DNA of 42,282 nucleotides. Source: Methanomassiliicoccaceae archaeon (GTDB lineage: Archaea; Thermoplasmatota; Thermoplasmata; Methanomassiliicoccales; Methanomethylophilaceae). The position numbers and the translations under genes were made by a program. A model generated the notes under the pieces. The model worked only from the letters and a program-made list of their open reading frames with translations. It searched no databases and was not told where the DNA came from. The stretch covers positions 1-42,282 of the forward strand of contig WQZJ01000001.1 of assembly GCA_009780795.1 (NCBI GenBank), read 5' to 3'. Positions within the stretch are counted from its first letter, which is position 1. Each line of letters begins with the position of its first letter. Below, in pieces: positions 16,791-39,271 of the stretch.

Positions 16791-16803
16791 ATGCCGAGCC
16801 CCA

Positions 16804-17166
16804 ATGTCATTAATTGCTGAATACCTGCCTGTGGCGATCCTCGCGATCCTCGCGATCGGATTCGCCCCTATCGCATGGCTCTTCTCAAGGTTTTTCAGAC
16901 CGGATAAGCCCTCGCAATGGAGGGACACGACATATGAGTGCGGTTCGGAGCCGATAGGCGATGCGCGCGTACAATTCAAGTTCCAATACTACATCTTTGG
17001 TATCATTTTCGTGGTCTTTGATCTTGTCGCGACGTTCCTGATGCTCTGGGCGGTCGCGTTCACGGAACTGTCTGACGCAGGTAAGGCGTGGGCGGTCCTG
17101 TTCCTCGCGATACTTCTCATAGGCGTGGCTTATGCTTTGAAAAAGGAGGATAAAATATGGATATGA
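16804..17166 (+). CDS. fpoA: Fpo/Nuo-like complex subunit A
   Basis: It has TYECGSEPIGDARVQFKFQYYIFGIIFVVFD, typical of NuoA/ND3. I prefer ATG 16804 because the TATA-rich CTTTTATATAATTATAAAT at 16771-16789 lies inside the longer track ORF. Confidence 0.85.
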   Translation: MSLIAEYLPVAILAILAIGFAPIAWLFSRFFRPDKPSQWRDTTYECGSEPIGDARVQFKFQYYIFGIIFVVFDLVATFLMLWAVAFTELSDAGKAWAVLFLAILLIGVAYALKKEDKIWI

Positions 17167-17720: not shown

Positions 17721-17722
17721 GC

Positions 17723-18193
17723 ATGACCGAGAAGATGATCGAGGCACCCACGGTGGAGGAGATAGCTGCCGCCGTGGACAGAGAGTTCTCATATATGACG
17801 GTGAAGAAGAAGACGGGCGTGCGCAGGATACACTACTCCTGCGACAGGAAGGCGATACACGACCTGTGCAAATATCTGCATGACGTCCTCAACTTCGAAC
17901 AGGCATCGTCGGTGTGCGGTGTCGACTGGAAGGACCACATGCAGGTGGTCTATCATCTGTCCAACTACGAGACAGGGATAATGGTCGAGATAACGGTCGA
18001 CGTTCCGAACGACGACCCGCACATAGACTCCGTGGCGCTCATTTGGGAAGGGGCGGACTGGCACGAGAGGGAGACGTACGAACTGTTCGGCATAATATTC
18101 GACGGGCATCCGAAACTGGAGAGGCTGCTGACGCCTCAGAACTATGAGTTCTTCCCGTTCAGGAAATCATACAAGCTAAGGGGGCAGGAATAA
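17723..18193 (+). CDS. fpoC: Fpo/Nuo-like complex subunit C
   Basis: It has the NuoC block WEGADWHERETYELFGIIFDGHP. Confidence 0.85.
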   Translation: MTEKMIEAPTVEEIAAAVDREFSYMTVKKKTGVRRIHYSCDRKAIHDLCKYLHDVLNFEQASSVCGVDWKDHMQVVYHLSNYETGIMVEITVDVPNDDPHIDSVALIWEGADWHERETYELFGIIFDGHPKLERLLTPQNYEFFPFRKSYKLRGQE

Positions 18194-19287: not shown

Positions 19288-19291
19288 TACC

Positions 19292-20455
19292 ATGCCATAC
19301 AGCAGCATAAGAGAATGGGTGACATGGAGCGAGCCTATCAACAGCCCGTACGGGGTGTTCAACATACCCTACGAGCTGGCCTACCGCGTCTGGGAACTGA
19401 TCGGCGGAACGCTGGCATGGCTCATAAACCTGATATTTCCGGGCAACAGCCTGTCAGAGTACCTGGCATTCGACCAGACGTTCGCAAGTTACATCGCGAT
19501 AGCGATAATGGTCATCGTGATCTTTGCCGTCGCGTTCGTGATAAATCTTACAATGATATGGCAGGAACGTAAGGTCCTGGGAAGAATGATGGACAGAAGG
19601 GCCACGCGCATAGGTCCTCTGGGGTATCTGCAGTGTCTCGCTGACGGACTTAAAACGTTCCTGAAAGAGAACATCATGCCGGAGAAGGCGGACAAGAAAG
19701 GGTACATGTGGGCACTTGTCGTGCTGATAGGCACGTCCGTGCTCATAGCATGCATGATACCGCTCAGCAGCAGATGGTTCGTGGTCGATTACAACACCGG
19801 TCTGCTTCTGATATTCGGTCTGTTCGCGATCGCGCCGTTCATGATACTGGTGGCCGGCTGGTCGCAGAATAACAAATACTCTTTGATAGGAGGTATGAGG
19901 GCCGCGGCACAAATGGTGGCGTACGAGGTCCCGATGCTCCTGGTACTGGCGTCGGTCGTATTGCTGGCCGGCAGCTTCAATATAAATGATATAGTGTACG
20001 CGCAGATGGAGACCACATGGTACATACTACCATTGTTCCTGGGTTTCATAGTGTTCCTGATATCAGCGATAGCGGAATCGGAAAGGATACCGTTCGACCT
20101 TCCGGAGGCGGAGGCCGAACTGGTCGAGGGATGGCAGACGGAGTACAGCGGAATGAAATGGGGACTGATCATGCTGGCGGACTACTTCAGAGGGTACGTC
20201 GCATGTGCGCTGATAGTGATAATGTTCCTCGGCGGCTGGACGCTCCCGTTCATCGGCGACGGGCCGATACCTGAGCTGGTGTTCCTGCTCAAGGTGTTCA
20301 TGGTGTTCTTCATATTCGCATGGGTAAGGGCGGCGCACTGCCGTATCAGGACCGATCAGATACTGCACTTCGGGTGGAAGGTACTTCTTCCGCTGTCGGT
20401 GGTGAACCTGGTCATAGTTCTGGCCATCATGCTCGCAGGAGGGATATTATGGTAA
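19292..20455 (+). CDS. fpoH: Fpo/Nuo-like complex subunit H, with about 50 aa N-terminal extension
   Basis: It has QERKVLGRMMDRRATRIGPLGYLQCLADGLK and ESERIPFDLPEAEAELVEG, the NuoH/ND1 signatures. The ERK motif lies at aa 92-94. Confidence 0.9.
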   Translation: MPYSSIREWVTWSEPINSPYGVFNIPYELAYRVWELIGGTLAWLINLIFPGNSLSEYLAFDQTFASYIAIAIMVIVIFAVAFVINLTMIWQERKVLGRMMDRRATRIGPLGYLQCLADGLKTFLKENIMPEKADKKGYMWALVVLIGTSVLIACMIPLSSRWFVVDYNTGLLLIFGLFAIAPFMILVAGWSQNNKYSLIGGMRAAAQMVAYEVPMLLVLASVVLLAGSFNINDIVYAQMETTWYILPLFLGFIVFLISAIAESERIPFDLPEAEAELVEGWQTEYSGMKWGLIMLADYFRGYVACALIVIMFLGGWTLPFIGDGPIPELVFLLKVFMVFFIFAWVRAAHCRIRTDQILHFGWKVLLPLSVVNLVIVLAIMLAGGILW

Positions 20456-21192
20456 TAAAGTACCTGGACAAGTTCCCTAAGAAGAAGAACGCACGCACGC
20501 TCTGGGTGCTGAAGCCCATGTGGGTGACCTTGAGGAAGATGTTCAAGACCACCCTTCACAGGCCGGTGACCATAATGTACCCGTACGAGAAGGAATGGGT
20601 ACCTGACAACTACCGCGGAAGGCCGGGTCTGCACTTCGACAAGTGCCTCGGATGCAGCATATGTGAGAGGATGTGCCCCACCAAGTGCATAAACATGGTG
20701 GATTCGCCGGATGACACAGGTAAGAACGTACTGAGGCCGCAGGTGAACCTCGGAAGGTGCATGATGTGCGGATACTGTGCGGAATACTGTCCTGTGAACG
20801 CGATGATAGTCACACCCGACTACGAATTGGCCGCATACACGCGTGAGGAGCTCATATACGGCCCCAGGAAGCTTGCGTGGCCGAACGCGACCGAAGGAAT
20901 GGAAGTGCACCTGAAGGAGCACCTTCTGTCCGACATCGCGGCTGGCGAGACCGGTAAGCTGACGGCGTTCTACGAGGTGGACAGGCCGGAGCTCGAGGAT
21001 AAGAAGTGCATAGGCTGTACCAGATGTGTCAAGGTGTGTCCTGTCGACGCGATAGAGATGTACACCGCCGGCGAGAACGATAAGGGAAAGCCGATAAAGC
21101 TCCCGAAGTTCGACAACGGCAGATGCGTTTGCTGCGAGAAATGCGTGGATGAGTGTCCCAAGGACGCCATCACGATAAAGGAGGTGCTATGA
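20449..21192 (+). CDS. fpoI: Fpo/Nuo-like complex subunit I carrying four CxxCxxCxxxCP motifs (extra 2x[4Fe-4S] module)
   Basis: ATG 20449 overlaps the fpoH stop. The track start at 20320 lies inside fpoH. The motifs are CLGCSICERMCP, CMMCGYCAEYCP, CIGCTRCVKVCP and CVCCEKCVDECP. Confidence 0.85.
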   Translation: MVIKYLDKFPKKKNARTLWVLKPMWVTLRKMFKTTLHRPVTIMYPYEKEWVPDNYRGRPGLHFDKCLGCSICERMCPTKCINMVDSPDDTGKNVLRPQVNLGRCMMCGYCAEYCPVNAMIVTPDYELAAYTREELIYGPRKLAWPNATEGMEVHLKEHLLSDIAAGETGKLTAFYEVDRPELEDKKCIGCTRCVKVCPVDAIEMYTAGENDKGKPIKLPKFDNGRCVCCEKCVDECPKDAITIKEVL

Positions 21193-21545
21193 TGAGCATT
21201 ATCTCTACATTGGATTCGCTGGTCACCGGCGTAGGGGACGGCATATCGAGCGTGGTGACATTCATCGTTAATAACCCGGATGCCATCGCATTCTTGGTAG
21301 TATTTGCGATAACGATCGCGTCCGCGCTGTTCGTGGTGATATCGAAGGAGGTGGTGCACAGTGCATTCTACCTTGCGCTGACGACCATATGTGTCGCGAT
21401 CACATACTTCTTCCTGGAGGCGGAGTTCGTGGCCATCGTTCAACTGATGGTGTACGTCGGCGCCGTGACGATAGTGTTCGCGTTCAGCATCATGCTCACT
21501 CGAAATAAGATAATGGAGAAGAAGGGAGGTGACGGCAATGGATAA
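21189..21545 (+). CDS. fpoJ: Fpo/Nuo-like complex subunit J, N-terminal half (split J1)
   Basis: This membrane protein has the NuoJ-like VHSAFYLALTTICVAITYFFLEAEFVAIVQLMVYVGAVTIVFAF. Its ATG overlaps the fpoI stop. Confidence 0.8.
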   Translation: MMSIISTLDSLVTGVGDGISSVVTFIVNNPDAIAFLVVFAITIASALFVVISKEVVHSAFYLALTTICVAITYFFLEAEFVAIVQLMVYVGAVTIVFAFSIMLTRNKIMEKKGGDGNG

Positions 21546-21834
21546 GAGAGCGCTCGTGCCGAGTGTGGTACTGGCGGTCGCCATAATGGCCATATTCTCG
21601 GCCGCCGCCTTCTCGGGCGACTGGTTCCGCGACTACAACGCGGAGGAACTGCATCCTCAGGAGTTCGCTCCCGGCCCTGACGGGCTGTCAAAGGATTCGA
21701 TCAATTACATGCTGTTCGAGGAGTTCGGGCCGATACTGATAGTGTTGGCACTGCTCATGTTCGGTTCGATCATAGGCGGTGTCTACATAGCTAAGGAAGA
21801 CGAAGAAGAAGAAACGGAGGAGGATAATAGATGA
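21538..21834 (+). CDS. fpoJ: Fpo/Nuo-like complex subunit J, C-terminal half (split J2) with acidic tail
   Basis: It has the C-terminal NuoJ-like block LFEEFGPILIVLALLMFGSIIGGVYIA and the tail KEDEEEETEEDNR. It overlaps the J1 stop. Confidence 0.7.
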   Translation: MDKRALVPSVVLAVAIMAIFSAAAFSGDWFRDYNAEELHPQEFAPGPDGLSKDSINYMLFEEFGPILIVLALLMFGSIIGGVYIAKEDEEEETEEDNR

Positions 21835-22133
21835 TCCCCATCGAGCTTTTCCTCCTATTGTCCGCGGTACTGTTCAGTATCGGACTGCTGGGTGTCCTGG
21901 TCCGGTCCAACGGTATCGTGATACTGATGTGCATAGAGATAATGCTGAACGCGGCGAACATCAACTTCATAGCGTTCGCGTCCCATTCGCCGGAACCGCT
22001 GGCGCAGATATTCGTGATAGTATCCATAGCGGTCGCCGCGGCTGAAGTGGGCGTGGGCATCGCTATACTATTGCGCGCGTACAAGGTGAGGAAGTCGACC
22101 AACATAGACGACCTTACGACCCTGAGGTGGTAA
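21831..22133 (+). CDS. fpoK: Fpo/Nuo-like complex subunit K
   Basis: It is 100 aa with three predicted TM helices and has the NuoK-like MCIEIMLNAANINF and AAAEVGVGIAILL. Confidence 0.85.
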   Translation: MIPIELFLLLSAVLFSIGLLGVLVRSNGIVILMCIEIMLNAANINFIAFASHSPEPLAQIFVIVSIAVAAAEVGVGIAILLRAYKVRKSTNIDDLTTLRW

Positions 22134-22134
22134 G

Positions 22135-24153
22135 ATGATCGGATCGATATCATTCATGGAATTTGCGTGGCTGATCCCGTTCGTACCGCTCCTGGCGTTC
22201 GTCATAGTCGGTTTCTTCGGGACCAAGTTCAAAGGAGGTGGCGGACTATTCGCCGTATCCTGTGCGCTGTTCGCGTTCGCGATGTCCGGTCTGGTGGCGT
22301 ACGAGTTCTTTACCGGAAGCGGCGTCCCGTACTCGCCGGACCCCATACAATGGCTGGCGATCGGCGAGTACACACTGAACTTCGGAATATACATCGACGG
22401 GCTGACATGCGTTATGCTGCTCTTCTCGTCGTCCATATCGCTGCTGATATTCATCTACTCGATAGGGTACATGAGCGGCGAAGGGAAGGGAAAGAGAAGG
22501 TACTACGCCGAGATATCACTGTTCCTCGGCGGTATGCTTGGTCTTATCCTCTCGAGCAACTACCTGGAGATGTTCATCTTCTGGGAGATAATGGGCGTAT
22601 GTTCGTATCTGCTCATAGGGTTCTGGTCATTCAAGCACCCTGACGGCGACGAAGCGTCCGCGGCGGCGGCCTCGGCGGCCAAGAAGGCGTTCCTGGTCAC
22701 AAGACTGGGGGACGTGTGCTTCATGGCCGGTCTGTTCGTGCTGCTGTGGTCGTTCAAGAGCCTCGACTTCGGTGTGCTCTTCGACCCGGCCGAGATCGCC
22801 GGCGTCGACGGCGGGATGATACTCTTGGGCATACTGCTGTTGTTCGGCGGTGTGATAGGTAAGAGCGCCCAATTCCCGCTGCAGGACTGGCTGCCCGATG
22901 CGATGGCCGGTCCTACCACCGTATCCGCGTTGATACACGCGGCGACGATGGTCAAGGCCGGTGTGTACCTCGTTGCGAGGTCATACCCGCTGTTCGTGCA
23001 GAACGCGGATGCCATGCTGCTGATCGCGGTGATAGGAGGTGTGACGGCCTTCATAGCTGCGACGATGGCGCTCAATAATATGAATATAAAACGGGTGCTG
23101 GCGTATTCTACGATATCCCAACTGGGGTACATGATAATGGCACTGGGTGTCGGAGGTTATATCATAGCCACCGAGATGGCCCACGGCGACGTCAGCTCGG
23201 ATGGATACACCGCAGGTGTGTTCCATATGATGAACCACGCCTTCTTCAAGGCGCTGCTGTTCATGGGCGCGGGGTCGGTGATACATGCCGTAGGTACCGA
23301 GGATATGCGTAGAATGGGCGGATTAAGTAGAAAGATGAAGATAACATCGTTCACGATGCTGATCGGATGTCTGTCCATCGCAGGGTTCCCGCTGTTCAGC
23401 GGGTTCTGGTCCAAGGATCTGATACTCGAAGCGGTGATGGAACCGTCGTCGCACAGCATCATATTCGTGCTGCTCTTCGTGCTTGCACTGATAACGGCGT
23501 TCATGACCGCGTTCTACATGTTCAGGCTGTGGTTCATGACCTTCAAGGGAAGGACGGGAGATGCGTCGGCGCACTGTCACGGCGAATCGCCCAAGTCGAT
23601 GACCGTACCACTGGTCATACTGTCGCTGTTCGCCGCGTTCTCCGGGTTCTTCATATTCCTCGGACTGAACGATGTGATAACGTTCAGTGTGATCGGCGGC
23701 GAGTTCTTCGTCGGCGGCCACGGACACTCCGCGGCATACATAATGGACCACATAATGACCAATGTGTGGACGTATGTGTCCATCGCCATCTCACTGGCGG
23801 GCATAGTGCTGGCTTACATGATGTACGCGCGCAGGTCCATAGACCCGGCGATGTTCAACGCCGACGGGAAATCGAGGATATACAGGTTCCTGACCGCACG
23901 CTACTACTTCCCGCAGCTGTACGACCAGATATCCCTCAAATTGGGATACAGCGTGGCCAAGGGAGTGGAGTATGTGGATGAGAACCTGATAGACGGTACG
24001 GTGAACGGCCTTTCGAACTCTGTGATAGGGACGTCCGGGTCCATGAGGAAGCTGCACTCCGGTTACGTGAGGGACTACGCGTCCTTCATGGTGATCGGTG
24101 TGATAACGATCTTCGTGGTGCTTTACATCCTGGTCACATCAGGAGGTGTCTGA
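22135..24153 (+). CDS. fpoL: Fpo/Nuo-like complex subunit L (antiporter-like, long)
   Basis: It is 672 aa and has GKSAQFPLQDWLPDAMAGPTTVSALIHAATMVKAGVYL, typical of NuoL/ND5. Confidence 0.9.
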   Translation: MIGSISFMEFAWLIPFVPLLAFVIVGFFGTKFKGGGGLFAVSCALFAFAMSGLVAYEFFTGSGVPYSPDPIQWLAIGEYTLNFGIYIDGLTCVMLLFSSSISLLIFIYSIGYMSGEGKGKRRYYAEISLFLGGMLGLILSSNYLEMFIFWEIMGVCSYLLIGFWSFKHPDGDEASAAAASAAKKAFLVTRLGDVCFMAGLFVLLWSFKSLDFGVLFDPAEIAGVDGGMILLGILLLFGGVIGKSAQFPLQDWLPDAMAGPTTVSALIHAATMVKAGVYLVARSYPLFVQNADAMLLIAVIGGVTAFIAATMALNNMNIKRVLAYSTISQLGYMIMALGVGGYIIATEMAHGDVSSDGYTAGVFHMMNHAFFKALLFMGAGSVIHAVGTEDMRRMGGLSRKMKITSFTMLIGCLSIAGFPLFSGFWSKDLILEAVMEPSSHSIIFVLLFVLALITAFMTAFYMFRLWFMTFKGRTGDASAHCHGESPKSMTVPLVILSLFAAFSGFFIFLGLNDVITFSVIGGEFFVGGHGHSAAYIMDHIMTNVWTYVSIAISLAGIVLAYMMYARRSIDPAMFNADGKSRIYRFLTARYYFPQLYDQISLKLGYSVAKGVEYVDENLIDGTVNGLSNSVIGTSGSMRKLHSGYVRDYASFMVIGVITIFVVLYILVTSGGV

Positions 24154-24154
24154 T

Positions 24155-25696
24155 ATGGAGTTCATAGGTCTTGAGATACCGTTCCTGTATCTGTTGCTGC
24201 TCGTACCGCTCATAGGGGCGGTGCTCAGCGGATTCACGCACAAGAACAGAAAGATGGCGAAATACGTCGCCATAATCTCGTCAGGTATAACGCTCGCGCT
24301 GTCCCTGATGTACATATACGCACTGTCCAGCGGAGATTACTTCGATTCCACGAGCTTCGCATGGATAGACACGGAATGGATCAAGATATCGTTCGCGCTC
24401 GGCGTCGACGGCATGAGCATACTGATGGTATTGCTCACAACGCTGCTGGTGTTCCTGGTCTCGATATTCTCGGGTTCCGAGAGCAACAGCCCCAACACCT
24501 TCTTCGGCCTGATACTGGCGATGGAGGTAGGTCTCCTGGGAGTGTTCCTGGCGCAGGATTACTTCCTGTTCTACATCTTCTGGGAGGTGGCGCTGGTCCC
24601 GATGTACTTCCTGATCAGCGGTTGGGGAGGGCCCCGCAGACACTACGCGGCGATCAAGTTCTTCATATACACGCATGTGGCGAGCCTGATAATGCTGATC
24701 GGTATCTTTGCGATGGCGATGATGGCGGCCGGAGGCGGTCCGTGGGTCGTCGGCGGAGGCGCGGTGGACTTCTCGTTCGCGGCGATAAGGGACGCGATGG
24801 AGAACGACATGTTCGACAAGGTGTTCCAGACGGCCATATTCGGAATGATGTTCCTGGGCTTCGCCGTAAAGATGCCCGTGGTGCCGTTCCACACATGGTT
24901 ACCGGATGCGCACGTCGAGGCACCGACCGCAGGCAGTGTTCTGCTGGCGGGCGTCATGCTTAAGATGGGTACGTACGGTATAATCCGCATATGCCTCGAG
25001 ATGCTCCCCGACGGGGCGCATGCGTGGCAGCCGGTGATGATAGTGATCGCGCTGGTGGCGATACTGTACGGTGCGTACGCCTGTATAGCTCAGAAGGATC
25101 TGAAGAAGATGGTGGCGTTCTCATCCATCAGTCACATGGGACTGGTGTTGCTTGGCATAGCCACCTTGTCCGAGCTCGGGATAACGTTCGCGATATTCCA
25201 GATGTTCGCGCACGGTCTGATAACGGCTGTGCTGTTCATGGTGTGCGGCATAGCCGGCCACAATGCGGGCACAAGGGAGATACCGTTGCTGGGAGGACTG
25301 GCCGGGAAGATGCCCAAGTTCGCGTTCTTCATGATGTTCGGATTCATGGCATCGCTGGGATTACCGGGACTTGCGGGATTCGTCGCCGAGTTCGGTATCA
25401 TAATGGCGTTCTTCGAATACCTGGCCGGAACGGCGTACCTATGGGTTATCGTCTTTGCACTGGCATCGCTGATGCTGACCGCGGGATATTATCTGTGGGC
25501 CATGCAACGTACGATATTCGGAAAGGAGACCGATAGGATAGATATCAAGCACGTGCACGACGTCAGTAAACCGGAGACACTGGCGCTCGGTGTGCTGTGC
25601 GCACTGATCGCCCTGTTCGGTATAATGCCGTGGCTGGTGGTGGACATGCTCGGTCCGACCGTTGACATGATCTGCCACTTCCTGGGGGTGATCTGA
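24155..25696 (+). CDS. fpoM: Fpo/Nuo-like complex subunit M (antiporter-like)
   Basis: It has KMPVVPFHTWLPDAHVEAPTAGSVLLAGVMLKMGTYG. ATG 24155 lies 8 nt after AGGAGG. The track start, GTG 24146, overlaps that RBS. Confidence 0.9.
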   Translation: MEFIGLEIPFLYLLLLVPLIGAVLSGFTHKNRKMAKYVAIISSGITLALSLMYIYALSSGDYFDSTSFAWIDTEWIKISFALGVDGMSILMVLLTTLLVFLVSIFSGSESNSPNTFFGLILAMEVGLLGVFLAQDYFLFYIFWEVALVPMYFLISGWGGPRRHYAAIKFFIYTHVASLIMLIGIFAMAMMAAGGGPWVVGGGAVDFSFAAIRDAMENDMFDKVFQTAIFGMMFLGFAVKMPVVPFHTWLPDAHVEAPTAGSVLLAGVMLKMGTYGIIRICLEMLPDGAHAWQPVMIVIALVAILYGAYACIAQKDLKKMVAFSSISHMGLVLLGIATLSELGITFAIFQMFAHGLITAVLFMVCGIAGHNAGTREIPLLGGLAGKMPKFAFFMMFGFMASLGLPGLAGFVAEFGIIMAFFEYLAGTAYLWVIVFALASLMLTAGYYLWAMQRTIFGKETDRIDIKHVHDVSKPETLALGVLCALIALFGIMPWLVVDMLGPTVDMICHFLGVI

Positions 25697-27228
25697 TGGT
25701 AGACATAATGGGCTTCATTGACTATGTGACGCCACTGGCGCCGCATCTCATACTGATAATAGCGGCGCTCGTCGCGCCGGCGATCGGCATGAAGAGCGGA
25801 AAGGCGACCGAAGTATTCATGATAATCGCGGGTGTATTCGCGATGATCGTCACCGGATACCTCATGTGGACCGGATACGTCGGTGAGTTCGAGGGACTGT
25901 ATCAGTTCAACACGTTCACCGGATTGATGTCACTGCTGTTCCTGTCAGTGTTCATACTTGTGGCGATGATGTCGTCCGCGGAGGGAAGGAAGCACCACGG
26001 TGAATACTTCGCCCTGCTGGCGGTGTCCACTGTAGGTATGATGCTGGTGTGCGCAGCGGAGGATATGATATCACTGTTCGTGGGATTGGAGCTGGCCAAC
26101 ATAACCGCGTTCGCCCTGGTCGCGTTCAAGAAGAACGACCCCAGGTCGTCCGAGGCGGCGGTCAAGTTCCTGATCACGAGCGGTCTGTCGACCGCGCTGT
26201 TCCTGTACGGTATGTCGCTGGTGTACGGTTTCACGGGATCGATGTCGATCAACGAGATAATCTACCACATGGCGGTGACCGACCCGTCGGTGTCGTACAT
26301 GGTGGCGATCGTCGTGCTGATAGCCGGATTCGCGTTCAAGATATCCGTCATCCCGTTCCATGCGTGGGTGCCGGACGTGTACGAGGGAGCACCTACGCCG
26401 GTCTCCACCTTCTTGGCCATAGGGTCCAAGAAGATGGGATTCGTGGTGTTCTTCAAGCTGTTCCTGCTGTTGTTCATCGCCGTGCACTTCCTCAGCCAGA
26501 TCGATGATCCGACCGCGGCAATGAGGATACACGAACTGCAGTGGGTGTTCGGAATGCTCGCAGCGGGAACGATGATCGTAGGTAACGTGGTGGCGATATC
26601 ACAGACCAGTATCAAGCGTATGCTGGCGTATTCCACCATCGCGCAATCAGGTTATCTGATGATAGTGCTGTGCGTGGGTACGGAATACGCCATGGCGACC
26701 GGTCTGTTCTACATGATCGTGCACGTGTTCATGAAAGGCGGTGCCTTCATAGTGGTGGCCGCGCTCGCGGCCCGCGGTCTGGGTGAGAATATCTCGGACT
26801 ACAAGGGACTGTCGAAGCGTGCCCCGCTGGTGGCGTTCGCGATGCTGCTGTTCATGTTCGCTCTTGCCGGAATTCCGCCGCTGGCGGGATTCACTGCCAA
26901 GTTCTTCCTGTTCTCCTCGGCGGTCACGCCGGACGGGACATGGATATGGCTGGTGGCCGTAGCGGTGATCAACAGCGCCATATCGCTGTACTACTACGCG
27001 AAGGTCGTGAAGACGATGTACGTCGACAAAGGTACCACCTCAGAGCGCATACGCATATCGGGGAGCTTCAAGCTCGCCATAGCGATATGTGCCATCGGGA
27101 CGATCATCATCGGCCTGTACCCCGGTCCGGTCCTCGAGATATGCGAGGCGGCCGCGAACGCGTACATAGGCGGATTCAAGGAATGGTTGTTCGACTTCCA
27201 TTCGGAACTGTTCCCGCCCATTCCGTGA
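25696..27228 (+). CDS. fpoN: Fpo/Nuo-like complex subunit N (antiporter-like)
   Basis: It has KISVIPFHAWVPDVYEGAPTPVSTFLA and LAYSTIAQSGY. Its ATG overlaps the fpoM stop by 1 nt. Confidence 0.9.
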   Translation: MVDIMGFIDYVTPLAPHLILIIAALVAPAIGMKSGKATEVFMIIAGVFAMIVTGYLMWTGYVGEFEGLYQFNTFTGLMSLLFLSVFILVAMMSSAEGRKHHGEYFALLAVSTVGMMLVCAAEDMISLFVGLELANITAFALVAFKKNDPRSSEAAVKFLITSGLSTALFLYGMSLVYGFTGSMSINEIIYHMAVTDPSVSYMVAIVVLIAGFAFKISVIPFHAWVPDVYEGAPTPVSTFLAIGSKKMGFVVFFKLFLLLFIAVHFLSQIDDPTAAMRIHELQWVFGMLAAGTMIVGNVVAISQTSIKRMLAYSTIAQSGYLMIVLCVGTEYAMATGLFYMIVHVFMKGGAFIVVAALAARGLGENISDYKGLSKRAPLVAFAMLLFMFALAGIPPLAGFTAKFFLFSSAVTPDGTWIWLVAVAVINSAISLYYYAKVVKTMYVDKGTTSERIRISGSFKLAIAICAIGTIIIGLYPGPVLEICEAAANAYIGGFKEWLFDFHSELFPPIP

Positions 27229-32120: not shown

Positions 32121-33722
32121 TTACAGAAGGGCTTTCATCACCCTTGCCGCTCGGGCATCTATCGTCTCGATACCGGTCACTTTGCTCGCGTACTCGGTGA
32201 GACAGTTTATGTCCCCTCTCTCGATACATTCGAGCTTGAACTTACGCGCTCCGGCCATCAGCTGTTTCAGTCCCTCGCCTATGCGGTCATGCCAGTACGT
32301 GTACAGGCCGACAGCACCCCACGGTATGTCTGTTCCGATCTTCGCACCGGGTCTGAGCGTCTGTACGGCGTTGCCCGAAATGAAGAACTGCTCCGGTTTG
32401 GTGCCGTACTGCTCCGCGAACGACGACGGGAGTTTTCCGCTCTCGGCAAGTTTCACGTAATGACTGCTCTTCATCACCGCAAGCAACGGCGTCCTGGACA
32501 TCCCTATCGACTTTACGATGGGGCCGTCCCCGAGGTCCGACATGGCCATCGCCTTGTACATCTGCGTTTCGTTGACGAACCCGCCGGCGAACGAGATGTC
32601 CGGTACGAACTCCCTGCGTTCCTTCAATATCCTGGCGCACTCGACCACCTGGGCGCACAGATGGACGGTAGGGGTGCTCATCTCGTTCATCATCGGTACC
32701 GGTGACATGCCTGTCCCTCCGCCCGCACCGTCGAAGGTGAGCAGATCGATCTTCGCCTTCGATGCGCATCTCATCGTGAACGCGACGACCTCCGGCCTGT
32801 ACGCGCCCGTCTTCAGGAACACATTCTTTGTCTTTGCTCTGAGATTGTCAACATCCTCCAGGAACGATGTCTCGTCCGGGAACCCGACACGGCTGTGTCG
32901 CTCGAATGATTTGAATAGACCTGCCTTGAAGGCATCCTGAACTCCCTTGTCCTCCGGGTCCGGAAGGACGAGGTACCCGCGGCTTTTCAGCTCAAGGGCC
33001 CGTTCCAGTGATGTAAGTCTTACTTCTCCGCCTATTGCCTTCGCGCCCTGTCCCCATTTCCTTTCGATGACATCGACATCAAGTTTCGACGTCACATAAT
33101 CGTCGACACCCGCTCTGAGGTCCTCGACGTTCGTCTGCACGACGATGGCGCCCGTCTTACCGTCCCACTGATCCCTGAAGGAGTTGATGCGGAACATCAT
33201 CTCCGGGGAAGACTGGACCTTACCGTTGGAATAAACGGACTCGGAATCCATCCCGCAGATGTTCTCGCCTATCACCTGGCACACACCGGTTATGGCCGAA
33301 CCGACGGCCATTCCCTTCCAGTTCCTCTTGGCGACGGCGGTCGAACCCAATCCGGCGATGTGCACTGGAACGTTCATAGGTATAGGCCGTTTCGACCTGG
33401 AACCGACGGACGTCCTTATATCGGCGTTCTCGAAGAACGCTTTGTCCGGGTCGGCGGCGATACCTTTGGCCCCTATGAGCTCTGACATGATCTGTATGTG
33501 CGACCAGTCGAGATAGAAGTCCTTGTTAGCGGATGCGGTGCTAACTCCGAAGTGCTCGGGGCTCGGGTACAGCACCTCTCTGCCCCTGAATGTCGCTTTG
33601 CCGGCCTCACATAGGACGGTGCACTCTTCGATGCATATCGGACACATTCCGCTCAGCGGGTTCGGGTCACGGACGCGCGTGGCGGTGCCGGTGGTTGATC
33701 TTTCGTTCTCTATCCCCTTCAT
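32121..33722 (-). CDS. glutamate synthase-related FMN/Fe-S protein (GltB domain-2-like)
   Basis: It has the N-terminal Cys cluster CPICIEECTVLC. A central TIM-barrel-like region has blocks typical of the GltS FMN domain (DGAGGGTGMSP, ISFAGGF). Confidence 0.7.
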   Translation of the reverse strand: MKGIENERSTTGTATRVRDPNPLSGMCPICIEECTVLCEAGKATFRGREVLYPSPEHFGVSTASANKDFYLDWSHIQIMSELIGAKGIAADPDKAFFENADIRTSVGSRSKRPIPMNVPVHIAGLGSTAVAKRNWKGMAVGSAITGVCQVIGENICGMDSESVYSNGKVQSSPEMMFRINSFRDQWDGKTGAIVVQTNVEDLRAGVDDYVTSKLDVDVIERKWGQGAKAIGGEVRLTSLERALELKSRGYLVLPDPEDKGVQDAFKAGLFKSFERHSRVGFPDETSFLEDVDNLRAKTKNVFLKTGAYRPEVVAFTMRCASKAKIDLLTFDGAGGGTGMSPVPMMNEMSTPTVHLCAQVVECARILKERREFVPDISFAGGFVNETQMYKAMAMSDLGDGPIVKSIGMSRTPLLAVMKSSHYVKLAESGKLPSSFAEQYGTKPEQFFISGNAVQTLRPGAKIGTDIPWGAVGLYTYWHDRIGEGLKQLMAGARKFKLECIERGDINCLTEYASKVTGIETIDARAARVMKALL

Positions 33723-33827: not shown

Positions 33828-35531
33828 TCACTCGAAGAAGAAGTGTGACGGGGATTCCGGCTTCGGCGAGAAGCAGGATTCATTGATCTTCTCTATCTTC
33901 GCGGGATAGCTGTCAAGTGAGCCGATGACACTTCTCATGGTCTCCTCGAGTCGCTTCGGCGGCGAGATCACTCTGGCGTTCAGCACAAGCTTCCCGGGAC
34001 TGGATATGAATCTGGATCCGTGGATGCCGTCAACCTGTATCGATTCCTGGACCAGTGACATCTTGGCCGATGCCTCCGGCGAAGAGATTATCACCTTCAC
34101 GTGGACGATGGCCTTCGGTCCGTATTCCTTCGCGACACCCTTCATTATGTCGGATGACATCGAGTACATGTCCACCTTGCCGTCCGGTGTTATATCGAAC
34201 GTCCCGGAGTACCACCCCAGTTTCGCCTTTTCGAACGCAAACCCTTTGTTGTCATCCTTCTCCGCGATCTTGGTGCTCGTTCTCTCAGATAATATCATAT
34301 CTATTATAGATCCCAGGTTCCTGAGGTCGGACGATGACGTCTCTATTATCTCGGCATCGGGAAGTATCTGCCTTAACTGCTCCTTTATCCCGGCGACCGC
34401 GTCCTGACGGACCAGGTCCGCCTTGGAGAGGATGACCACTTCCGCCTCTTTGATCTGATGTGCCGGTATGAGGTCGACGGATTCGACGTTCCTCTCCTTC
34501 TGTCCGGACAATATGTCTGACGCCCTTATACAGTCGATGACGACGGTGAACGGGGCAACGTCGAACTCATCCGGGTACATGGATCTGAGAGGAGCGACGA
34601 CGGACCCCATCAGGTTCGTCGACGTTCCGATAGGCTCCGCTATGATGACATCCGGCCTGCCGGCCGAGACCAGCGTCCTGGCGCTGGTCACGAACTCGTC
34701 GAAGTTGGAACAGAAGCATCCGCCGAGTATCTCACGCACGTCGAACCCGGCGTCCTTCGTGAACTCCGTGTCCACGAGGACGTCCCCTTGGTCATTGGTT
34801 ATTATCGCTACTGATCTGTCGTTCCTCTCCCTGAGCTCCCTGGCAAGATTCACCGCGAGCGTGGTCTTACCCGCCCCCAGATATCCGCCGAGCACGAGGA
34901 ACCTGGTCTTTCCCGATCCCATGTTGTCTTCCCTCCTTCTCATGAAAGTGCATCTGTCGCAAGGTATGGTGAGGACGCACCTCTCACCTGTAACAAGGCT
35001 TTTCAGTGATTCTATGATCCCGGCATCCAGAGGCCCGGCCCTTTTCCTGTTGTTGATCCTTAACGTATCCTCTTCCGCAGCGCTCATCGCAGGAGGAACG
35101 ATGCCCTTTTCGATAAGGGACCTCATGCATTCGCTGTTCTCCTCGTCGGAACAGGAATCGCACCTCAACCCGACCTCGGATAGCGGTCCGTAGAGTTCCG
35201 CGAGCGGATCCACGATGTATATCTTCCGGTCGTTGCCGATGGCGATGTAAACAGCATCTGGATCAGACGGTACTATGTACTCAGTGCGGGCACCCCGTAC
35301 TTTCTCTTCTCTCGCGACCTTCCACATCGCCGGCAGATGGTCGCACAGCTGGTACGACAGCTGCTGATACTTTATCCCAAGACGGTCGGCGAGGTCCTGT
35401 TTCGATACGGGCCCGTGTGCTCTGACCATCTTGAAAAGGGCGGTCAGGATGCGCTGGCGCATCTCGTGATCGTGTATCGAGATGTACGTTTCCGGATCGA
35501 GGCAGATGATCTCCATCTTGCAGTTCGGCAC
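33828..35531 (-). CDS. fusion protein: winged-helix DNA-binding domain, Cys-rich linker and G3E-family (CobW/HypB/UreG-like) P-loop GTPase
   Basis: This is one uninterrupted 567-codon ORF. The wHTH is RQRILTALFKMVRAHGPVSKQDLADRLGIKYQQLSYQL. The Cys motifs are CDSCSDEENSEC and CVLTIPCDRC. The GTPase part has Walker A GGYLGAGKTT, GGCFCS, DVIIAEPIG and SKAD. The start is GTG 35531, with an alternative ATG at 35516. Confidence 0.65.
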   Translation of the reverse strand: MPNCKMEIICLDPETYISIHDHEMRQRILTALFKMVRAHGPVSKQDLADRLGIKYQQLSYQLCDHLPAMWKVAREEKVRGARTEYIVPSDPDAVYIAIGNDRKIYIVDPLAELYGPLSEVGLRCDSCSDEENSECMRSLIEKGIVPPAMSAAEEDTLRINNRKRAGPLDAGIIESLKSLVTGERCVLTIPCDRCTFMRRREDNMGSGKTRFLVLGGYLGAGKTTLAVNLARELRERNDRSVAIITNDQGDVLVDTEFTKDAGFDVREILGGCFCSNFDEFVTSARTLVSAGRPDVIIAEPIGTSTNLMGSVVAPLRSMYPDEFDVAPFTVVIDCIRASDILSGQKERNVESVDLIPAHQIKEAEVVILSKADLVRQDAVAGIKEQLRQILPDAEIIETSSSDLRNLGSIIDMILSERTSTKIAEKDDNKGFAFEKAKLGWYSGTFDITPDGKVDMYSMSSDIMKGVAKEYGPKAIVHVKVIISSPEASAKMSLVQESIQVDGIHGSRFISSPGKLVLNARVISPPKRLEETMRSVIGSLDSYPAKIEKINESCFSPKPESPSHFFFE

Positions 35532-35550
35532 GTACCCTCTATCATCGCCT

Positions 35551-35576
35551 TTTTATTTATATCCAAGCGTACGCTT
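35551..35576. promoter_or_regulatory. shared TATA element plus 12-bp perfect palindrome between the wHTH-GTPase gene and proA
   Basis: TTTTATTTATAT (35551-35562) is followed directly by AAGCGTACGCTT (35565-35576) in the 86-bp divergent intergenic region. Confidence 0.5.
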
Positions 35577-35617
35577 AATAACGTGGAAGATGTTGCGTCA
35601 AAAAAGGCGATATCCTC

Positions 35618-36937
35618 ATGGCGAACATCAAAGAGAACGTTATACGCGCAAAGGACGCCGCGACCGTCCTGTCGGCCGTGAGCACCAGCGTGAAGGATAA
35701 GGCGCTCGAGGCAATGGCCGATGCTCTGGACAACTTCAGGAAGGAAGTGATCTCCGCGAACGCCGAGGATATGATCGCAGCGGAGAGGATGAGGGCCGCC
35801 GGCGAGCTTACAGACCCTATGGTAAAGCGTCTGAGGGTGAACGACGAGAAGATCGACGGAATGATGGACGGCATAAGGGATGTGAGGAAGTTAAAGGACC
35901 CGATCGGCGAGACGATGTCCGCGATGGAGCTGGACGATGGTCTGACGTTGTACCAGGTAAGATGTCCGATAGGACTCATAGGTGTGATATTCGAATCTAG
36001 GCCGGATGTGGTCCCGCAGATAATGGCGTTATGCCTCAAGAGCGGTAACGCCGTCGCGTTCAAAGGAGGCAAGGAGGCGGCAGGTACGAACCGCGCGCTG
36101 TTCGATATATTGTCAAAGGCAGCGTACGCGGCCGGTATACCCGAGGGCTCGTTCTGTCTCATGGAGACAAGGGAGGACGTGTCCGCGATATTGGGAATGG
36201 ACGGCCTGATAGACCTTCTCATACCGCGAGGGTCCAACGAGTTCGTTAGGTATATCCAAGAGAACACAAAGATACCGGTCCTCGGTCACTCCGCAGGGAT
36301 ATGTCACGTATATGTGGATGCGGACGCGGACATCGATGTCGCTGTGAATGTGACGCTGGACTCGAAGATACAGTACCCGGCGGTCTGCAATGCCGTCGAG
36401 ACGTTACTCGTGAACGTTCGCATAGCTGATGAGTTCATCCCGAGGATGACGGACATCTTCATCAGGAACGGCGTGGAGGTAAGGGCGGACGCATCCGCCA
36501 TGAAACTGGCCGGAACGCACGTGAAGGAGGCGAAGGACAGCGATTGGGACGAGGAGTACAACGACCTCGTGATCTCGATGAGGACAGTGGATTCACTGGA
36601 TGAGGCGGTGGATTTCATCAACAAACACGGTTCGAAGCACACGGATGCGATAATCACACGCAACAAGGACAATGCGCTCAGGTTCGCGAACTTCGTCGAT
36701 TCATCGAGCGTGATGGTGAACGCATCCACCCGATTCTCGGACGGATACAGGTACGGGAAGGGCGCCGAGGTGGGGATAAGCACGAACAAGATACACTCCA
36801 GGGGCCCGGTGGGCATGGAGGGACTGACGATATACAAGTACGTGCTGACAGGCGAAGGGCACGTTGTGAAGGATTACGCGGGAAAGGATGCGAAGAGATA
36901 CACGCACAGAACGCTGGACAAAGAATTCAAGTTGTGA
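35618..36937 (+). CDS. proA: gamma-glutamyl phosphate reductase
   Basis: It is an aldehyde-dehydrogenase-fold protein with ProA blocks (IGVIFESRPDV, AFKGGKEA, PAVCNAVETLLV, HGSKHTDAIIT). Confidence 0.9.
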   Translation: MANIKENVIRAKDAATVLSAVSTSVKDKALEAMADALDNFRKEVISANAEDMIAAERMRAAGELTDPMVKRLRVNDEKIDGMMDGIRDVRKLKDPIGETMSAMELDDGLTLYQVRCPIGLIGVIFESRPDVVPQIMALCLKSGNAVAFKGGKEAAGTNRALFDILSKAAYAAGIPEGSFCLMETREDVSAILGMDGLIDLLIPRGSNEFVRYIQENTKIPVLGHSAGICHVYVDADADIDVAVNVTLDSKIQYPAVCNAVETLLVNVRIADEFIPRMTDIFIRNGVEVRADASAMKLAGTHVKEAKDSDWDEEYNDLVISMRTVDSLDEAVDFINKHGSKHTDAIITRNKDNALRFANFVDSSSVMVNASTRFSDGYRYGKGAEVGISTNKIHSRGPVGMEGLTIYKYVLTGEGHVVKDYAGKDAKRYTHRTLDKEFKL

Positions 36938-36941
36938 CACC

Positions 36942-38060
36942 ATGAACAGAAAAGAGCACCTGAAGGGGGCGCACAGGATCGTCGTGAAAGTCGGAACATC
37001 ATCCATAACAAGAGGGGGACCGAGCGCATCGTCCGAGTTCATGGACACCATAGCCAGACAGGTGAAGGATCTAAAGGACAAAGGAACGGAGGTGTTGATA
37101 GTAACATCCGGCGCGATAGGCATCGGACTGGCGGTGATGGACGCCAGGGCGCGGTCGCGCGAGATACCCGTGAGGCAGGCGGCGGCATCCATAGGACAGA
37201 GCGCGCTGATGCAGAAATGGAACGAGAGCTTCCAAAGGCACGGTATAGCGACGGCACAGATACTGCTGACATATGACTTCTACTCTGACCGCGAGAAATA
37301 CCTCAACCTGAGGAACGCGATACAGACGATACTGGAGTTCGGTGCGGTGCCGATATTCAATGAGAACGATGCGATATGTGTCAAAGAGATAGACGCGGTG
37401 TTCGGTGACAACGACACACTTTCGGCGATGGTGTCGATAAAGATGGACGCCGACCTTCTGATAATATTGTCGGATGTTCACGGTCTATACGATAAAGATC
37501 CGAAGTTATTCGGAGACGCTAAGCTGATCCCGGAGGTGACGGACATAACCGATCGGATACGGGAGCAGGCCGGCGACACGGCTGGCCGCCTGGGGACGGG
37601 AGGCATGAGGACGAAGATACGTGCCGCCGAGATATGCCATGAGGCGGGATGCAGCGTCATCATCGCCGGGAGCGACGTCGACGATGTCATCGAAAGAATA
37701 ATCGACGGCGAGGAGATAGGCACGATATTCATCACCGATAAGAGAGAAAGCAGGAAAAGCAGCTGGATACGGTATGCGCATGCGTCCGGCTCGATAGAGG
37801 TGGATGAGGGTGCCAAGAAGGCGCTGCTGAAGCACGTGAGCCTTCTTGCGGTCGGTATAAAGGACACAAAAGGAAGGTTCGACAGAGGCGATGTCGTCAA
37901 CATCACATGCGGCGGTGCAGTGATAGCGAAAGGCATACCCGATTACAATTCCGACGACATATCGAAGATCAAGGGGCTGCACAGTGACAGGATGTTCGAG
38001 GTACTCGGTCACAAGAACTATGACAACGTGATAAGGAGCGAGAACATAGTCATAATGTGA
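36942..38060 (+). CDS. proB: glutamate 5-kinase with C-terminal PUA domain
   Basis: It has RIVVKVGTSSIT, VTSGAIGIG, NENDA, GDNDTLSA and GTGGMRTK, with a PUA-like C-terminus. ATG 36942 follows the proA stop by 4 nt. The track start at 36888 overlaps proA. Confidence 0.9.
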   Translation: MNRKEHLKGAHRIVVKVGTSSITRGGPSASSEFMDTIARQVKDLKDKGTEVLIVTSGAIGIGLAVMDARARSREIPVRQAAASIGQSALMQKWNESFQRHGIATAQILLTYDFYSDREKYLNLRNAIQTILEFGAVPIFNENDAICVKEIDAVFGDNDTLSAMVSIKMDADLLIILSDVHGLYDKDPKLFGDAKLIPEVTDITDRIREQAGDTAGRLGTGGMRTKIRAAEICHEAGCSVIIAGSDVDDVIERIIDGEEIGTIFITDKRESRKSSWIRYAHASGSIEVDEGAKKALLKHVSLLAVGIKDTKGRFDRGDVVNITCGGAVIAKGIPDYNSDDISKIKGLHSDRMFEVLGHKNYDNVIRSENIVIM

Positions 38061-38230: not shown

Positions 38231-39271
38231 CTAATCAATCGCGTCCTTTTCCCATCGATCGCCGAGAGCGTTCCGGACAGCCTTGCGCTTGTCGATCCGG
38301 AGGTAATACTTCTCGGTGTTCGTCTGCCTCTCATGCCGCAGCTGCTTCGACGCAGCTCCGATCAGAGACAGATCGTCATCGACGAGCAGAGTGAGCAGCG
38401 TCGGCCGCAGATCCTTGATCCGGAAGCTGACTCCGGAGAGCTCCTCGATCTTGATCTTATGTTTCCGGAACGTGTTTCCGCAAAGAGGCTTACCTGTAGA
38501 GGGATTGACGAAAACAAACTTCGTTTTGACTCCCATCTCTGCGAGGTACTCTTCCCGCTCCTTCAGGGAACGTTCGAGGCGTCTGAGCATATCCTGTCGG
38601 ATGATGTTGACCTTTTCCTTCTTGCCCCAGGAACCCTCGCCCTTGGGGTGACGTACATAGAATGTCTCCGCGGCGAGATTGATATCCTGCATCTCCGCCT
38701 CGAACATCTCCTTAGGCCGGCAGCCGGTGCCGAAGGCCAAAGGCAGCAGCACCCGCATGACGATCCCCGGATATCCGCCGATCAGATCAATGGCGGCGAA
38801 GATCCTCCGCACCTCCTCGATCGGCAGCGCACGAACCTCACCGTCGCCGTCGGCCGACTTGATCACGATCTCGTCATCCTCGGCCATCCTCTCAATGATC
38901 TTGTTGCCCCAGAACTCAAGATATCCCTTCAGGATCTTGACATACGTTCCTTCAGAACTGTTGGTCATCTCTTTCGCCTTCATCCACCTGAAGAAGGCCT
39001 CGATCTCAGCCGGCCCCATGTGACGAGGGTCTGTAGTCTCGATGGATCCGGAAGACTTGAATCTCTCGAAGACCTCTGAAAAGTACTCCAGCTTCCGACC
39101 GTTCTCATAGATCGTGACCGGCGTGAATCTTATCGATTTCTTGGCGATGTAATGCTTGATCCCTGCCTTGAATGGATATCGGCCGAGCCTGATCCCGCTG
39201 CGCGTCTCCGCCCACCGGCTGCTCTCCGCAGCCTTCTTTTTTGTTCTCTTTTTCGCTCCCATCCTGTGCAC
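38231..39271 (-). CDS. int: tyrosine recombinase / phage-type integrase
   Basis: The C-terminal catalytic region has GTGCRPKEM (Arg I), KDLRPT (H/K-x-x-R) and LRHERQTNTEKYYLR (His plus the Tyr nucleophile). The gene ends in TAG. Confidence 0.8.
   Translation of the reverse strand: MHRMGAKKRTKKKAAESSRWAETRSGIRLGRYPFKAGIKHYIAKKSIRFTPVTIYENGRKLEYFSEVFERFKSSGSIETTDPRHMGPAEIEAFFRWMKAKEMTNSSEGTYVKILKGYLEFWGNKIIERMAEDDEIVIKSADGDGEVRALPIEEVRRIFAAIDLIGGYPGIVMRVLLPLAFGTGCRPKEMFEAEMQDINLAAETFYVRHPKGEGSWGKKEKVNIIRQDMLRRLERSLKEREEYLAEMGVKTKFVFVNPSTGKPLCGNTFRKHKIKIEELSGVSFRIKDLRPTLLTLLVDDDLSLIGAASKQLRHERQTNTEKYYLRIDKRKAVRNALGDRWEKDAID

Follow-up and report, generated by a model that had tools for sequence, protein, structure and literature searches.

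The gene described here lies on the reverse strand of a 42,282-nucleotide (nt) stretch of DNA from a Methanomassiliicoccaceae archaeon (contig WQZJ01000001.1, positions 1 to 42,282), which is referred to as the window. It encodes one polypeptide in which a predicted winged-helix protein with a cysteine-rich subdomain is joined to a GTPase of the G3E family, and it is oriented divergently from proA and proB. An earlier note on this DNA had described a single 567-codon open reading frame (ORF) made up of an ArsR/MarR-like winged helix-turn-helix, a linker with six cysteines, and a G3E-type GTPase with a further C-terminal domain. The ORF was recovered with a GTG start, and all of the motif positions given in that note (C124, C127, C135, C185, C191, C194, Walker A, GGCFCS, ExxG and SKAD) proved correct. 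The segments of the gene, with residue numbers in amino acids (aa), are listed below.

33828..35531, (-): complete fusion gene of 567 codons and a stop, beginning with GTG (ORF call; architecture common to ~25 protein clusters)
35499..35531, (-): N-terminal strand, aa 1-11, with the near-invariant Cys4 (alignments; AlphaFold2 strand at aa 3-10)
35268..35498, (-): predicted ArsR/SmtB-like winged helix-turn-helix, aa 12-88 (AlphaFold2, Foldseek, sub-cutoff HTH_20)
34923..35267, (-): beta-sheet and helical Cys-rich subdomain, aa 89-203 (conserved Cys; predicted local distance difference test, pLDDT, ~89-95 over aa 89-180)
34902..34937, (-): junction of the two halves, aa 199-210, RREDNMGSGKTR (taken up in split genomes by a stop codon plus a gap of 9-105 nt)
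34272..34910, (-): G3E GTPase domain, aa 208-420 (Pfam cobW, YjiA matches, invariant G motifs)
33831..34271, (-): C-terminal domain, aa 421-567, predicted alpha/beta, ending CFSPKPESPSHFFFE (AlphaFold2, Foldseek)

The full-length AlphaFold2 model presented three folded parts (pLDDT 82), in agreement with the proposed modules. The cysteine stretch, on the other hand, is not a linker; it is a folded and conserved subdomain of the putative DNA-binding partner, and a seventh conserved cysteine, C4, lies in the N-terminal strand. The GTG is probably the true start codon, because the codon for the conserved C4 is upstream of the alternative ATG at 35516, and because the GTG and the residues that follow it, xxC(K/R)ME, are kept in 7/7 loci of the fused clade. 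At the junction (34914-34933), an AGGAGG is found 9 nt before the ATG of M206, in the window only, and might permit separate translation of the GTPase half in this organism. As an internal translation start, M206 was set aside given that relatives have no Met at this position.

The two halves of the fusion protein

The N-terminal part, modelled alone, reached a pLDDT of 89.4 and a predicted template modelling score (pTM) of 0.86. In this model the N-terminal strand is succeeded by the winged helix (aa 12-88), then by a small sheet, and finally by a helical subdomain that bears cysteines. Within the winged helix, the predicted secondary structure follows the alpha-alpha-alpha-alphaR-beta-beta fold (helices 13-20, 23-39, 44-51 and 55-65; strands 70-78 and 81-88), with a putative recognition helix KYQQLSYQL (aa 54-62) and wing EEKVRGAR (aa 75-82). 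The best Foldseek match of the N-terminal part was PH1932, an ArsR homologue of P. horikoshii (E=1.4e-4 over 204 columns), followed by Pyrococcus Phr, and a probability of at least 0.97 was obtained for AntR, SmtB, SqrR, CzrA and ArsR. An hhalign comparison of the winged-helix core with ArsR-type regulators gave E=8e-5 at 61% probability. The Cys-rich subdomain had no Pfam match, and a profile search of the PDB with the partner family returned nothing significant. The fold proposed for this domain in the earlier note was therefore recovered on the ArsR side, through PH1932, Phr and ArsR/SmtB proteins, while at the level of Pfam the HTH_20 match remained below the cutoff.

Proteins homologous to the N-terminal part formed a family of 237 members, nearly all of ~206 aa (200-235 aa). 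All of them are annotated as 'hypothetical' and carry no Pfam domain, and every named member originates from the Methanomassiliicoccales. The stand-alone 206-aa partner shares 50-62% identity with the window protein over aa 1-203. Alignments of the family highlighted C124, C127, C135, C191, C194 and H22 as invariant, together with Y55, Q57, L58, Y60, Q61 and L62 of the recognition helix and K77, R79 and G80 of the wing; C4 (at least 90% of sequences), C185 and H65 were near-invariant. All seven conserved cysteines (4, 124, 127, 135, 185, 191 and 194) are outside the winged helix and are thus located elsewhere than the alpha3N and alpha5 sensory sites of ArsR/SmtB proteins. As judged from the models, the N-terminal part is one conserved two-domain protein family that is ArsR-like by fold.

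G3E GTPases carry ExxG in place of DxxG, and CxCC is the high-affinity metal motif that defines COG0523 (PMC11672702). In the C-terminal half of the fusion, Pfam cobW (PF02492) covered aa 212-396 (E=3.5e-26; 92.3 bits against a cutoff of 20.7 bits). The best relative with a solved structure was E. coli YjiA, which ranked top both by sequence (E=3e-6) and by fold (Foldseek E=1.8e-10 over 356 columns, including the C-terminal domain), and the G3E P-loop GTPase named in the earlier note was thereby confirmed. The Walker A motif (G1) GGYLGAGKT at aa 215-223 is invariant in the family alignment, as are the E and G of the G3 ExxG (EPIG, aa 299-302) and the K and D of the G4 [NS]KxD (SKAD, aa 369-372). 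The GGCFCS at aa 270-275, with cysteines 272 and 274, departs from the CxCC of COG0523. Its third Cys is replaced by Ser, Thr or Ala throughout the Methanomassiliicoccales (CxC[S/T/A]), while bacterial relatives keep GGCFCC. Two family cysteines have been lost in this clade, one by the change of CxCC to CxC[STA] and the other by the change of GSCTD to GTSTN.

The C-terminal domain was predicted to consist of strands at 438-449, 475-522 and 544-554 and helices at 455-469 and 525-541. The resulting beta-alpha-beta4-alpha pattern appears similar to that of YjiA, and Pfam CobW_C did not match the fusion protein at E up to 1. The NCBIfam named equivalogs (CobW, ZigA, YjiA-like and CobW-related selenoprotein) all scored far under their cutoffs, the best with 63 bits against 180. 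A profile search of 1.8 billion representative proteins identified 510 at E<=1e-30, most of them 355-385 aa long and covered over both domains. The typical tail of the family is PxPxP[HY], often preceded by CF, and the fusion protein ends in the family-specific form CFxPKPExPxH. On this sequence evidence, the GTPase half is a member of a widespread, unnamed G3E subfamily that is COG0523-like in architecture.

Fused and split forms, and the wider GTPase family

The distribution of the fusion was followed in a locus survey in which one genome per species was taken and the reading frames were analysed. The same architecture was observed in ~25 Methanomassiliicoccaceae protein clusters at 77-86% identity and in a distant fused protein (P0025) with 54% identity to the window protein. 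The frame is continuous in the window and in L006-L011, which together represent seven species-level genomes, and also in L004/L046 (~54% identity). No stop or frameshift was found at the junction across independent assemblies from at least seven species-level genomes; the junction sequences differ between the fused clades and contain no stop codon. In ~30 other Methanomassiliicoccales loci, the partner and the GTPase are adjacent separate genes with gaps of 9-105 nt, an unannotated ~206-aa protein being encoded directly upstream of a ~365-aa GTPase. Furthermore, hundreds of ~365-aa Methanomethylophilaceae proteins match the GTPase and C-terminal half alone with 64-75% identity. In the deep-branching L051 (4983-6086 and 8485-9564) and L052 (3163-4230 and 4968-6092), two paralogous GTPase genes flank the partner gene.

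This profile of fused against split versions, for which the earlier note had called, indicates that the fusion is the minority form of a conserved two-gene operon. We infer two independent fusions, one in the window clade and one in L004/L046, since each fused clade resembles split forms more closely than it does the other fused clade, and since the junctions differ. The statement that no fusion of such a GTPase to a DNA-binding domain has been characterised held for the literature searched, in which none is described.

Relatives of the GTPase were found in a variety of genomic contexts. Rare independent N-terminal fusions to HTH_20 (P0211, 2 contigs) and PadR (P0282, 1 contig) domains were identified, as well as fusions to MIP channels, which are of the aquaporin type (P0300/P0354 and P0213). 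Among 80 metagenome loci of bacterial-type relatives, 16/80 had an adjacent MIP gene and 12/80 an adjacent small winged-helix regulator of the ArsR or PadR type; where at least 1 kb was available on both sides, 9 of the 37 loci carried an adjacent MIP gene, regulator or both. All of the ArsR-type neighbours have an N-terminal Cys and a C-terminal GCC or DCC, the PadR-type ones have a CxC and a third Cys, and the fused versions are alike in this respect. The nearest relatives outside the Methanomassiliicoccales (L053, L064 and L067) are linked to MIP. Two unannotated genes of 205 and 206 aa beside the GTPase in L067 were considered as homologues of the partner and rejected, as they are not homologous.

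Genes of the ars type were found near relatives only in B. cereus, where a MIP-GTPase is located beside Acr3-ArsD-ArsA, and on one Bathyarchaeota contig, where the homologue adjoins ArsA. More distant members were located in corrinoid methyltransferase clusters (L060/L061 and L068), and these match the COG0523 'subfamily 13' of Haas 2009 (PMC2770081); others occur with Fer4 and radical-SAM genes. Since the contexts vary between MIP, ars, corrinoid and Fer4/radical-SAM genes, the GTPase family is, as far as gene context can tell, functionally mixed, with pairing to a Cys-bearing winged-helix regulator as a recurring theme. An operon of regulator, MIP and GTPase recurs in L070-L149, L053, L057-L059, L064 and L067, and two unrelated regulator families, each with three conserved cysteines, stand beside MIP and a CxCC GTPase. 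This arrangement has the look of a module not yet described, one that would deal with a solute able to bind thiols and pass through MIP, As(III) or Sb(III) for example.

Promoter region and gene neighbourhood

The intergenic region between the fusion gene and proA is 86 bp long (35532-35617) and contains the elements listed below, in which BRE denotes the transcription factor B recognition element.

35554..35561, (-): TATA box of the fusion gene, TATAAATA, centre ~26 nt upstream of the GTG
35565..35576, (.): 12-bp palindrome AAGCGTACGCTT, between two TATA-like boxes, where the BRE of either promoter would lie
35575..35582, (+): second AT-rich box, TTAATAAC, read as TTATTAAG on the other strand and kept in 6/7 fused-clade loci
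35593..35601, (-): TTGACGCAA box, conserved across the fused clade as TGAYGCAW

Upstream of the fusion gene, ATATAAATAA is invariant in the fused clade and is followed ~24 nt later by the GTG, and the same geometry was observed in split genomes. The mRNA of the fusion gene is probably leaderless, as the TATA centre lies ~26 nt upstream of the start codon, in line with established promoter spacing. The TTAATAAC box is probably the TATA of proA, judging from its distance of ~40 nt to the proA ATG. The TTGACGCAA box is one base off TTGACTCAA, which deep-branching relatives carry ahead of their partner gene; the resemblance is weak and was noticed post hoc.

The perfect palindrome that the earlier note had placed in the region shared with proA is indeed present, at 35565-35576. 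Its surroundings differ from those proposed there: two AT-rich TATA-like boxes, rather than one TATA element, flank the palindrome. It stands ahead of the TATA that belongs to the fusion gene, at the BRE position, and not downstream of that of proA, because the adjoining TATA sits 26-30 nt before the fusion start codon. The palindrome is perfect in the window only, and its relatives carry the imperfect versions AAGCGTACCCTT, AATGGTACCCCT, AAGCGTGCACCCCT, AAGTGTACCTTT and AAGCATGCCCTT. A palindromic centre is kept through differing sequences in the fused clade (CGTACG, GGTACC, GTGCAC and GCATGC). The window as a whole has 15 perfect 12-bp palindromes against 13.4 expected. A second exact AAGCGTACGCTT at 13142-13153 was rejected as a site, being located inside the gene of methanogenesis marker protein 11 (12359-13306) with no promoter context. 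The 8-bp core GCGTACGC starts at window positions 3825, 13144, 25073, 35567 and 36122, a count of five that was reached in 0/100 shuffles; enrichment of GCGTACGC was sought in the loci of relatives and was not seen. CGTACG is ~2-fold enriched in the window.

The comparative palindrome signal was much stronger in the split genomes than in the window. A 16-bp palindrome, ACTCAAATATTTGAGT (0-3 mismatches), is located 31-37 nt upstream of the partner start in ~15 distinct Methanomethylophilaceae loci, and its match is unique within each ~11-kb locus. Other clades present, at the same position, ACTCGA-N8-TCGAGT, ACTC-N8-GAGT, TTGACTCAA or TTGACTC(C)AA. A search of the window for ACTCAAATATTTGAGT with up to 3 mismatches gave no match. 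Dimeric regulators that control their own gene usually show such a palindrome at a fixed spacing from their TATA, and these elements are presented as predicted operators.

The annotated neighbours of the fusion gene are listed below.

35618..36937, (+): proA, gamma-glutamyl phosphate reductase (Pfam Aldedh; divergent in most related loci)
36942..38060, (+): proB, glutamate 5-kinase with PUA domain (Pfam AA_kinase and PUA)
32121..33722, (-): GltB-like protein, 533 aa, N-terminal CxxCxxxCxxxC (Pfam Glu_synthase E=1.4e-8, partial)

Both the divergent proA-proB pair and the downstream GltB-like gene had been correctly identified in the earlier note. The start of proB is likely M19 of the listed ORF, as the homology of relatives begins at about residue 19. 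The GltB-like protein is an uncharacterised, divergent relative of the flavin mononucleotide (FMN) domain with 70-87% identity across the Methanomassiliicoccales, and it has no sequence match in NCBIfam or the PDB. Its gene has, in the window, its own TATA and a GGTGAT Shine-Dalgarno sequence. It was found in about half of the related loci, which led us to reject an origin as an insertion, and host-associated lineages that have the partner-GTPase pair lack it. An operator common to the GltB-like and partner genes was also rejected, given that their upstream regions share no palindrome across loci; ACTCGAAAATCGA near 33800 was not conserved in the comparison of GltB-like upstream regions.

Much of the order shares the arrangement proB-proA <-> partner-GTPase-(GltB-like)-methyltransferase-Csl4-ThiI. 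In deep-branching lineages, proAB is replaced by other nitrogen and amino-acid genes, namely an Lrp/AsnC regulator with a three-subunit glutamate synthase (L047, L048, L049 and L052), alanine dehydrogenase with a GNAT acetyltransferase (L004), or a glutamate-semialdehyde-dehydrogenase-like gene (L065). The upstream OCD-family gene of L004 was rejected as a proline-forming cyclodeaminase, as it scores as an archaeal alanine dehydrogenase. The recurrence of glutamate-family neighbours makes a link to glutamate and proline metabolism suggestive.

Elsewhere in the window, proC is located at 15842-16651, ~20 kb from proAB. A tyrosine recombinase/integrase gene (38231-39271, (-)) follows proB directly. 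Two further ORFs come next, one of 513 aa that matched no family and one of 204 aa, and the segment 38231-41528 is perhaps an integrated element. The whole window yielded no tRNA gene. The translated ORFs of 5363-9058 and 16762-27228 were read as an AMP-pathway set (ribose-1,5-bisphosphate isomerase, form III RuBisCO and AMP phosphorylase) together with an Fpo-like complex.

A predicted regulator and its GTPase

The explanation that we favour, with a chance of being correct that we would put at about even, is that the partner is a Cys-rich, ArsR-like autoregulator whose ligand site is serviced or read by a COG0523-like GTPase, with which it works and to which it is joined here. The partner would be a dimeric transcription factor whose Cys subdomain probably holds Zn and/or an iron-sulfur (Fe-S) cluster or another thiol-bound ligand. 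It would bind the dyad-symmetric element that immediately precedes the TATA in the probably leaderless promoter of its gene, resulting in autoregulation, and the divergent proAB promoter, ~13 bp away in this clade, may be co-controlled. The partner and the GTPase may act as a complex, in which the binding or hydrolysis of GTP would charge the Cys site of the regulator with its ligand, strip the ligand off or report on it, and in this way set the regulator's DNA binding. Being covalently joined, the partners would always be present in equal (1:1) amounts. In favour of this reading are the two independent fusions set against ~30 split loci, the order-wide partner family, the fold matches to PH1932, Phr and ArsR/SmtB proteins, the invariant recognition helix and wing, the palindromes kept ahead of the partner gene, the separate fusions and adjacencies of the GTPase family with HTH_20, ArsR-type and PadR-type regulators, the invariant G motifs, and the eukaryotic CBP1-CCM1 precedent described below.

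Several observations weigh against this explanation. A regulator that is the first gene of its own operon would account for the adjacency without any physical coupling, and the GTPase occurs with no nearby partner gene in L014-L019, L022, L047 and L049. The interdomain geometry of the full-length AlphaFold2 model is unreliable (pTM 0.61). The template modelling (TM) scores of the Foldseek matches are low (0.37-0.39 for PH1932), and HTH_20 matched aa 21-62 with E=9e-5 and 22.8 bits, under the 27-bit Pfam cutoff. For HTH_5 and HTH_20 the scores of 22.8-24 bits likewise fall short of the gathering score of 27, and only 3/39 members of the partner family matched HTH_20 at E<=0.01. Given the Foldseek matches, the empty PDB profile search and this low number of HTH_20 matches, the partner is described as ArsR-like by fold and its membership of the ArsR family by sequence is not established. 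As for the palindrome in the window, shuffling an 86-bp region produces a perfect 12-mer with P=0.023, which is a mild surprise at most, and its 8-bp core occurs 5 times in the window against 0.8 expected, mostly within genes. In L006, AAGCATGCCCTT is followed by a 22-bp insertion that splits the box. The window palindrome is, moreover, wholly unlike the ACTCAAATATTTGAGT of most relatives, while the recognition helix is near-identical (S59 versus V59).

The strongest of the alternatives, which we regard as unlikely yet still deserving of attention, is a plain operon of repressor and cargo in which the fusion is incidental. The N-terminal protein would then be a metal-responsive repressor and the GTPase a metallochaperone for some other client, in parallel with Zur-COG0523 or ArsR-ars, and the clients might be the GltB-like or glutamate synthase Fe-S/FMN enzymes or Zn/corrinoid methyltransferases. 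This arrangement, with the regulator as the first gene, is the commonest one for an operon. It is also in keeping with the GltB-like gene found after the GTPase at roughly half of all loci, with the glutamate synthase and Lrp regulator that adjoin in the four deep-branching loci named above, with the corrinoid methyltransferase clusters of distant members and with the lineages in which the GTPase has no partner nearby. However, winged-helix fusions arose at least four times (twice with this partner, once each with HTH_20 and PadR), which would be unexpected for a neutral accident, and the GltB-like gene has its own promoter, shares no palindrome and is absent from host-associated lineages that have the pair. 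A smaller likelihood still is given to the N-terminal protein as a client or adaptor of the GTPase, that is a Cys-rich metalloprotein whose winged helix serves protein contacts, with the palindromes belonging to another regulator or to promoter architecture. Winged helices also have protein-protein roles, TFE-alpha and ScpB were among the Foldseek matches, ArsR membership by sequence is not established, and the operator sequence varies by clade while the 'recognition' helix stays the same. Nevertheless, the best structural matches are DNA-binding regulators, the basic wing residues K77 and R79 are invariant, the palindrome keeps a fixed distance from its own TATA in many species, a classic signature of autoregulation, and the GTPase relatives pair with bona fide ArsR and PadR regulators.

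Handling of a metalloid by the pair, As(III) or Sb(III), as the nearest relatives outside the Methanomassiliicoccales may do, appears improbable. The MIP channels beside the nearest outgroup members, the Acr3-ArsD-ArsA and ArsA genes by the B. cereus and Bathyarchaeota homologues, and the three conserved cysteines in each type of associated ArsR- or PadR-type regulator point in this direction. An arsenic role was kept at such a low probability because the window and ~50 Methanomassiliicoccales loci contain no MIP or ars gene; in addition, the clade has lost the two family cysteines described above, and homologues of ArsA, ArsD and Acr3 were not found in the 80 metagenome loci. That the fusion is a sequencing or assembly artefact joining two genes is hardly credible. 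Most relatives do have two separate genes, but the frame is continuous in independent assemblies of at least seven species-level genomes and in ~25 protein clusters, and the junctions differ between clades and hold no stop codon.

Comparison with known systems places the Cys-rich autoregulator and its GTPase between several families. The GTPase half shares with the COG0523 GTPases (YjiA, ZigA, ZagA, CobW and ZNG1) the P-loop, ExxG, [NS]KxD, the Cys motif after G2 and, by prediction, an alpha/beta C-terminal domain. It differs from them in having CxC[S/T/A] and not CxCC, a C-terminal domain that Pfam CobW_C does not recognise, the tail CFxPKPExPxH, scores that reach no NCBIfam equivalog cutoff, and its fusion or pairing with a DNA-binding-type protein. 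The N-terminal part is predicted to share the winged-helix topology of ArsR/SmtB proteins, PH1932 (1uly/2cwe) and Phr (2p4w), together with a palindrome at its own promoter, and PH1932 and Phr also have an extra C-terminal domain, as is predicted here. In contrast to ArsR/SmtB, the cysteines are located in a separate ~115-aa subdomain and the N-terminal strand, HTH_20 scores are sub-cutoff, and the family is an unannotated one of the Methanomassiliicoccales.

By analogy, the closest functional precedent is CBP1-CCM1 of Chlamydomonas, in which the COG0523 protein CBP1 binds the Zn-dependent transcription factor CCM1/CIA5 (PMC12891040). In both cases a COG0523-type GTPase is physically attached to a Cys/His metal-binding type of transcription factor, a putative one in the fusion, and in the algal pair it modulates gene expression (PMC12891040). 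CBP1 (CobW/CobW_C plus a WW domain) differs in that it is eukaryotic, binds non-covalently via WW and has an unrelated transcription factor, so that homology is limited to the G domain. BirA, PutA and NadR are bifunctional enzyme-regulators that unite, in one polypeptide, a DNA-binding domain and a nucleotide-using catalytic domain, and in such a protein the state of the latter could govern binding to DNA; this resemblance is functional only, as their domains are not homologous and the coupling in the fusion protein is putative. In IcmF (MeaB-mutase), a G3E GTPase is fused to its partner in some lineages and separate in others, as here, although that partner is a B12-dependent mutase client and not a DNA-binding-type protein.

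A more general proposal is that the G3E GTPase family acts directly on transcription factors, a GTP-driven chaperone loading or stripping the thiol-bound ligand of its own regulator. Such a chaperone-gated metalloregulator would involve a Cys7 regulator in the Methanomassiliicoccales and Cys3 regulators of the ArsR and PadR types with a MIP module elsewhere, plausibly for As(III)/Sb(III)-like solutes. We offer this generalisation tentatively and consider it doubtful at present.

Most COG0523-type GTPases have no known client, and the fusion names a likely working partner for this one. A specific partner can be named because the fusion occurs in two lineages and relatives carry an obligate gene pair, and the question is directly testable with two small soluble proteins. 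The analysis also defines an unannotated, order-wide protein family of gut and environmental methanogens together with a candidate operator, and flags a wider regulator-MIP-GTPase module that appears to be undescribed. If the GTPase does set the metal state of the transcription factor, the pair would be a prokaryotic counterpart of the algal CBP1-CCM1 and would represent a new way of gating a metalloregulator.

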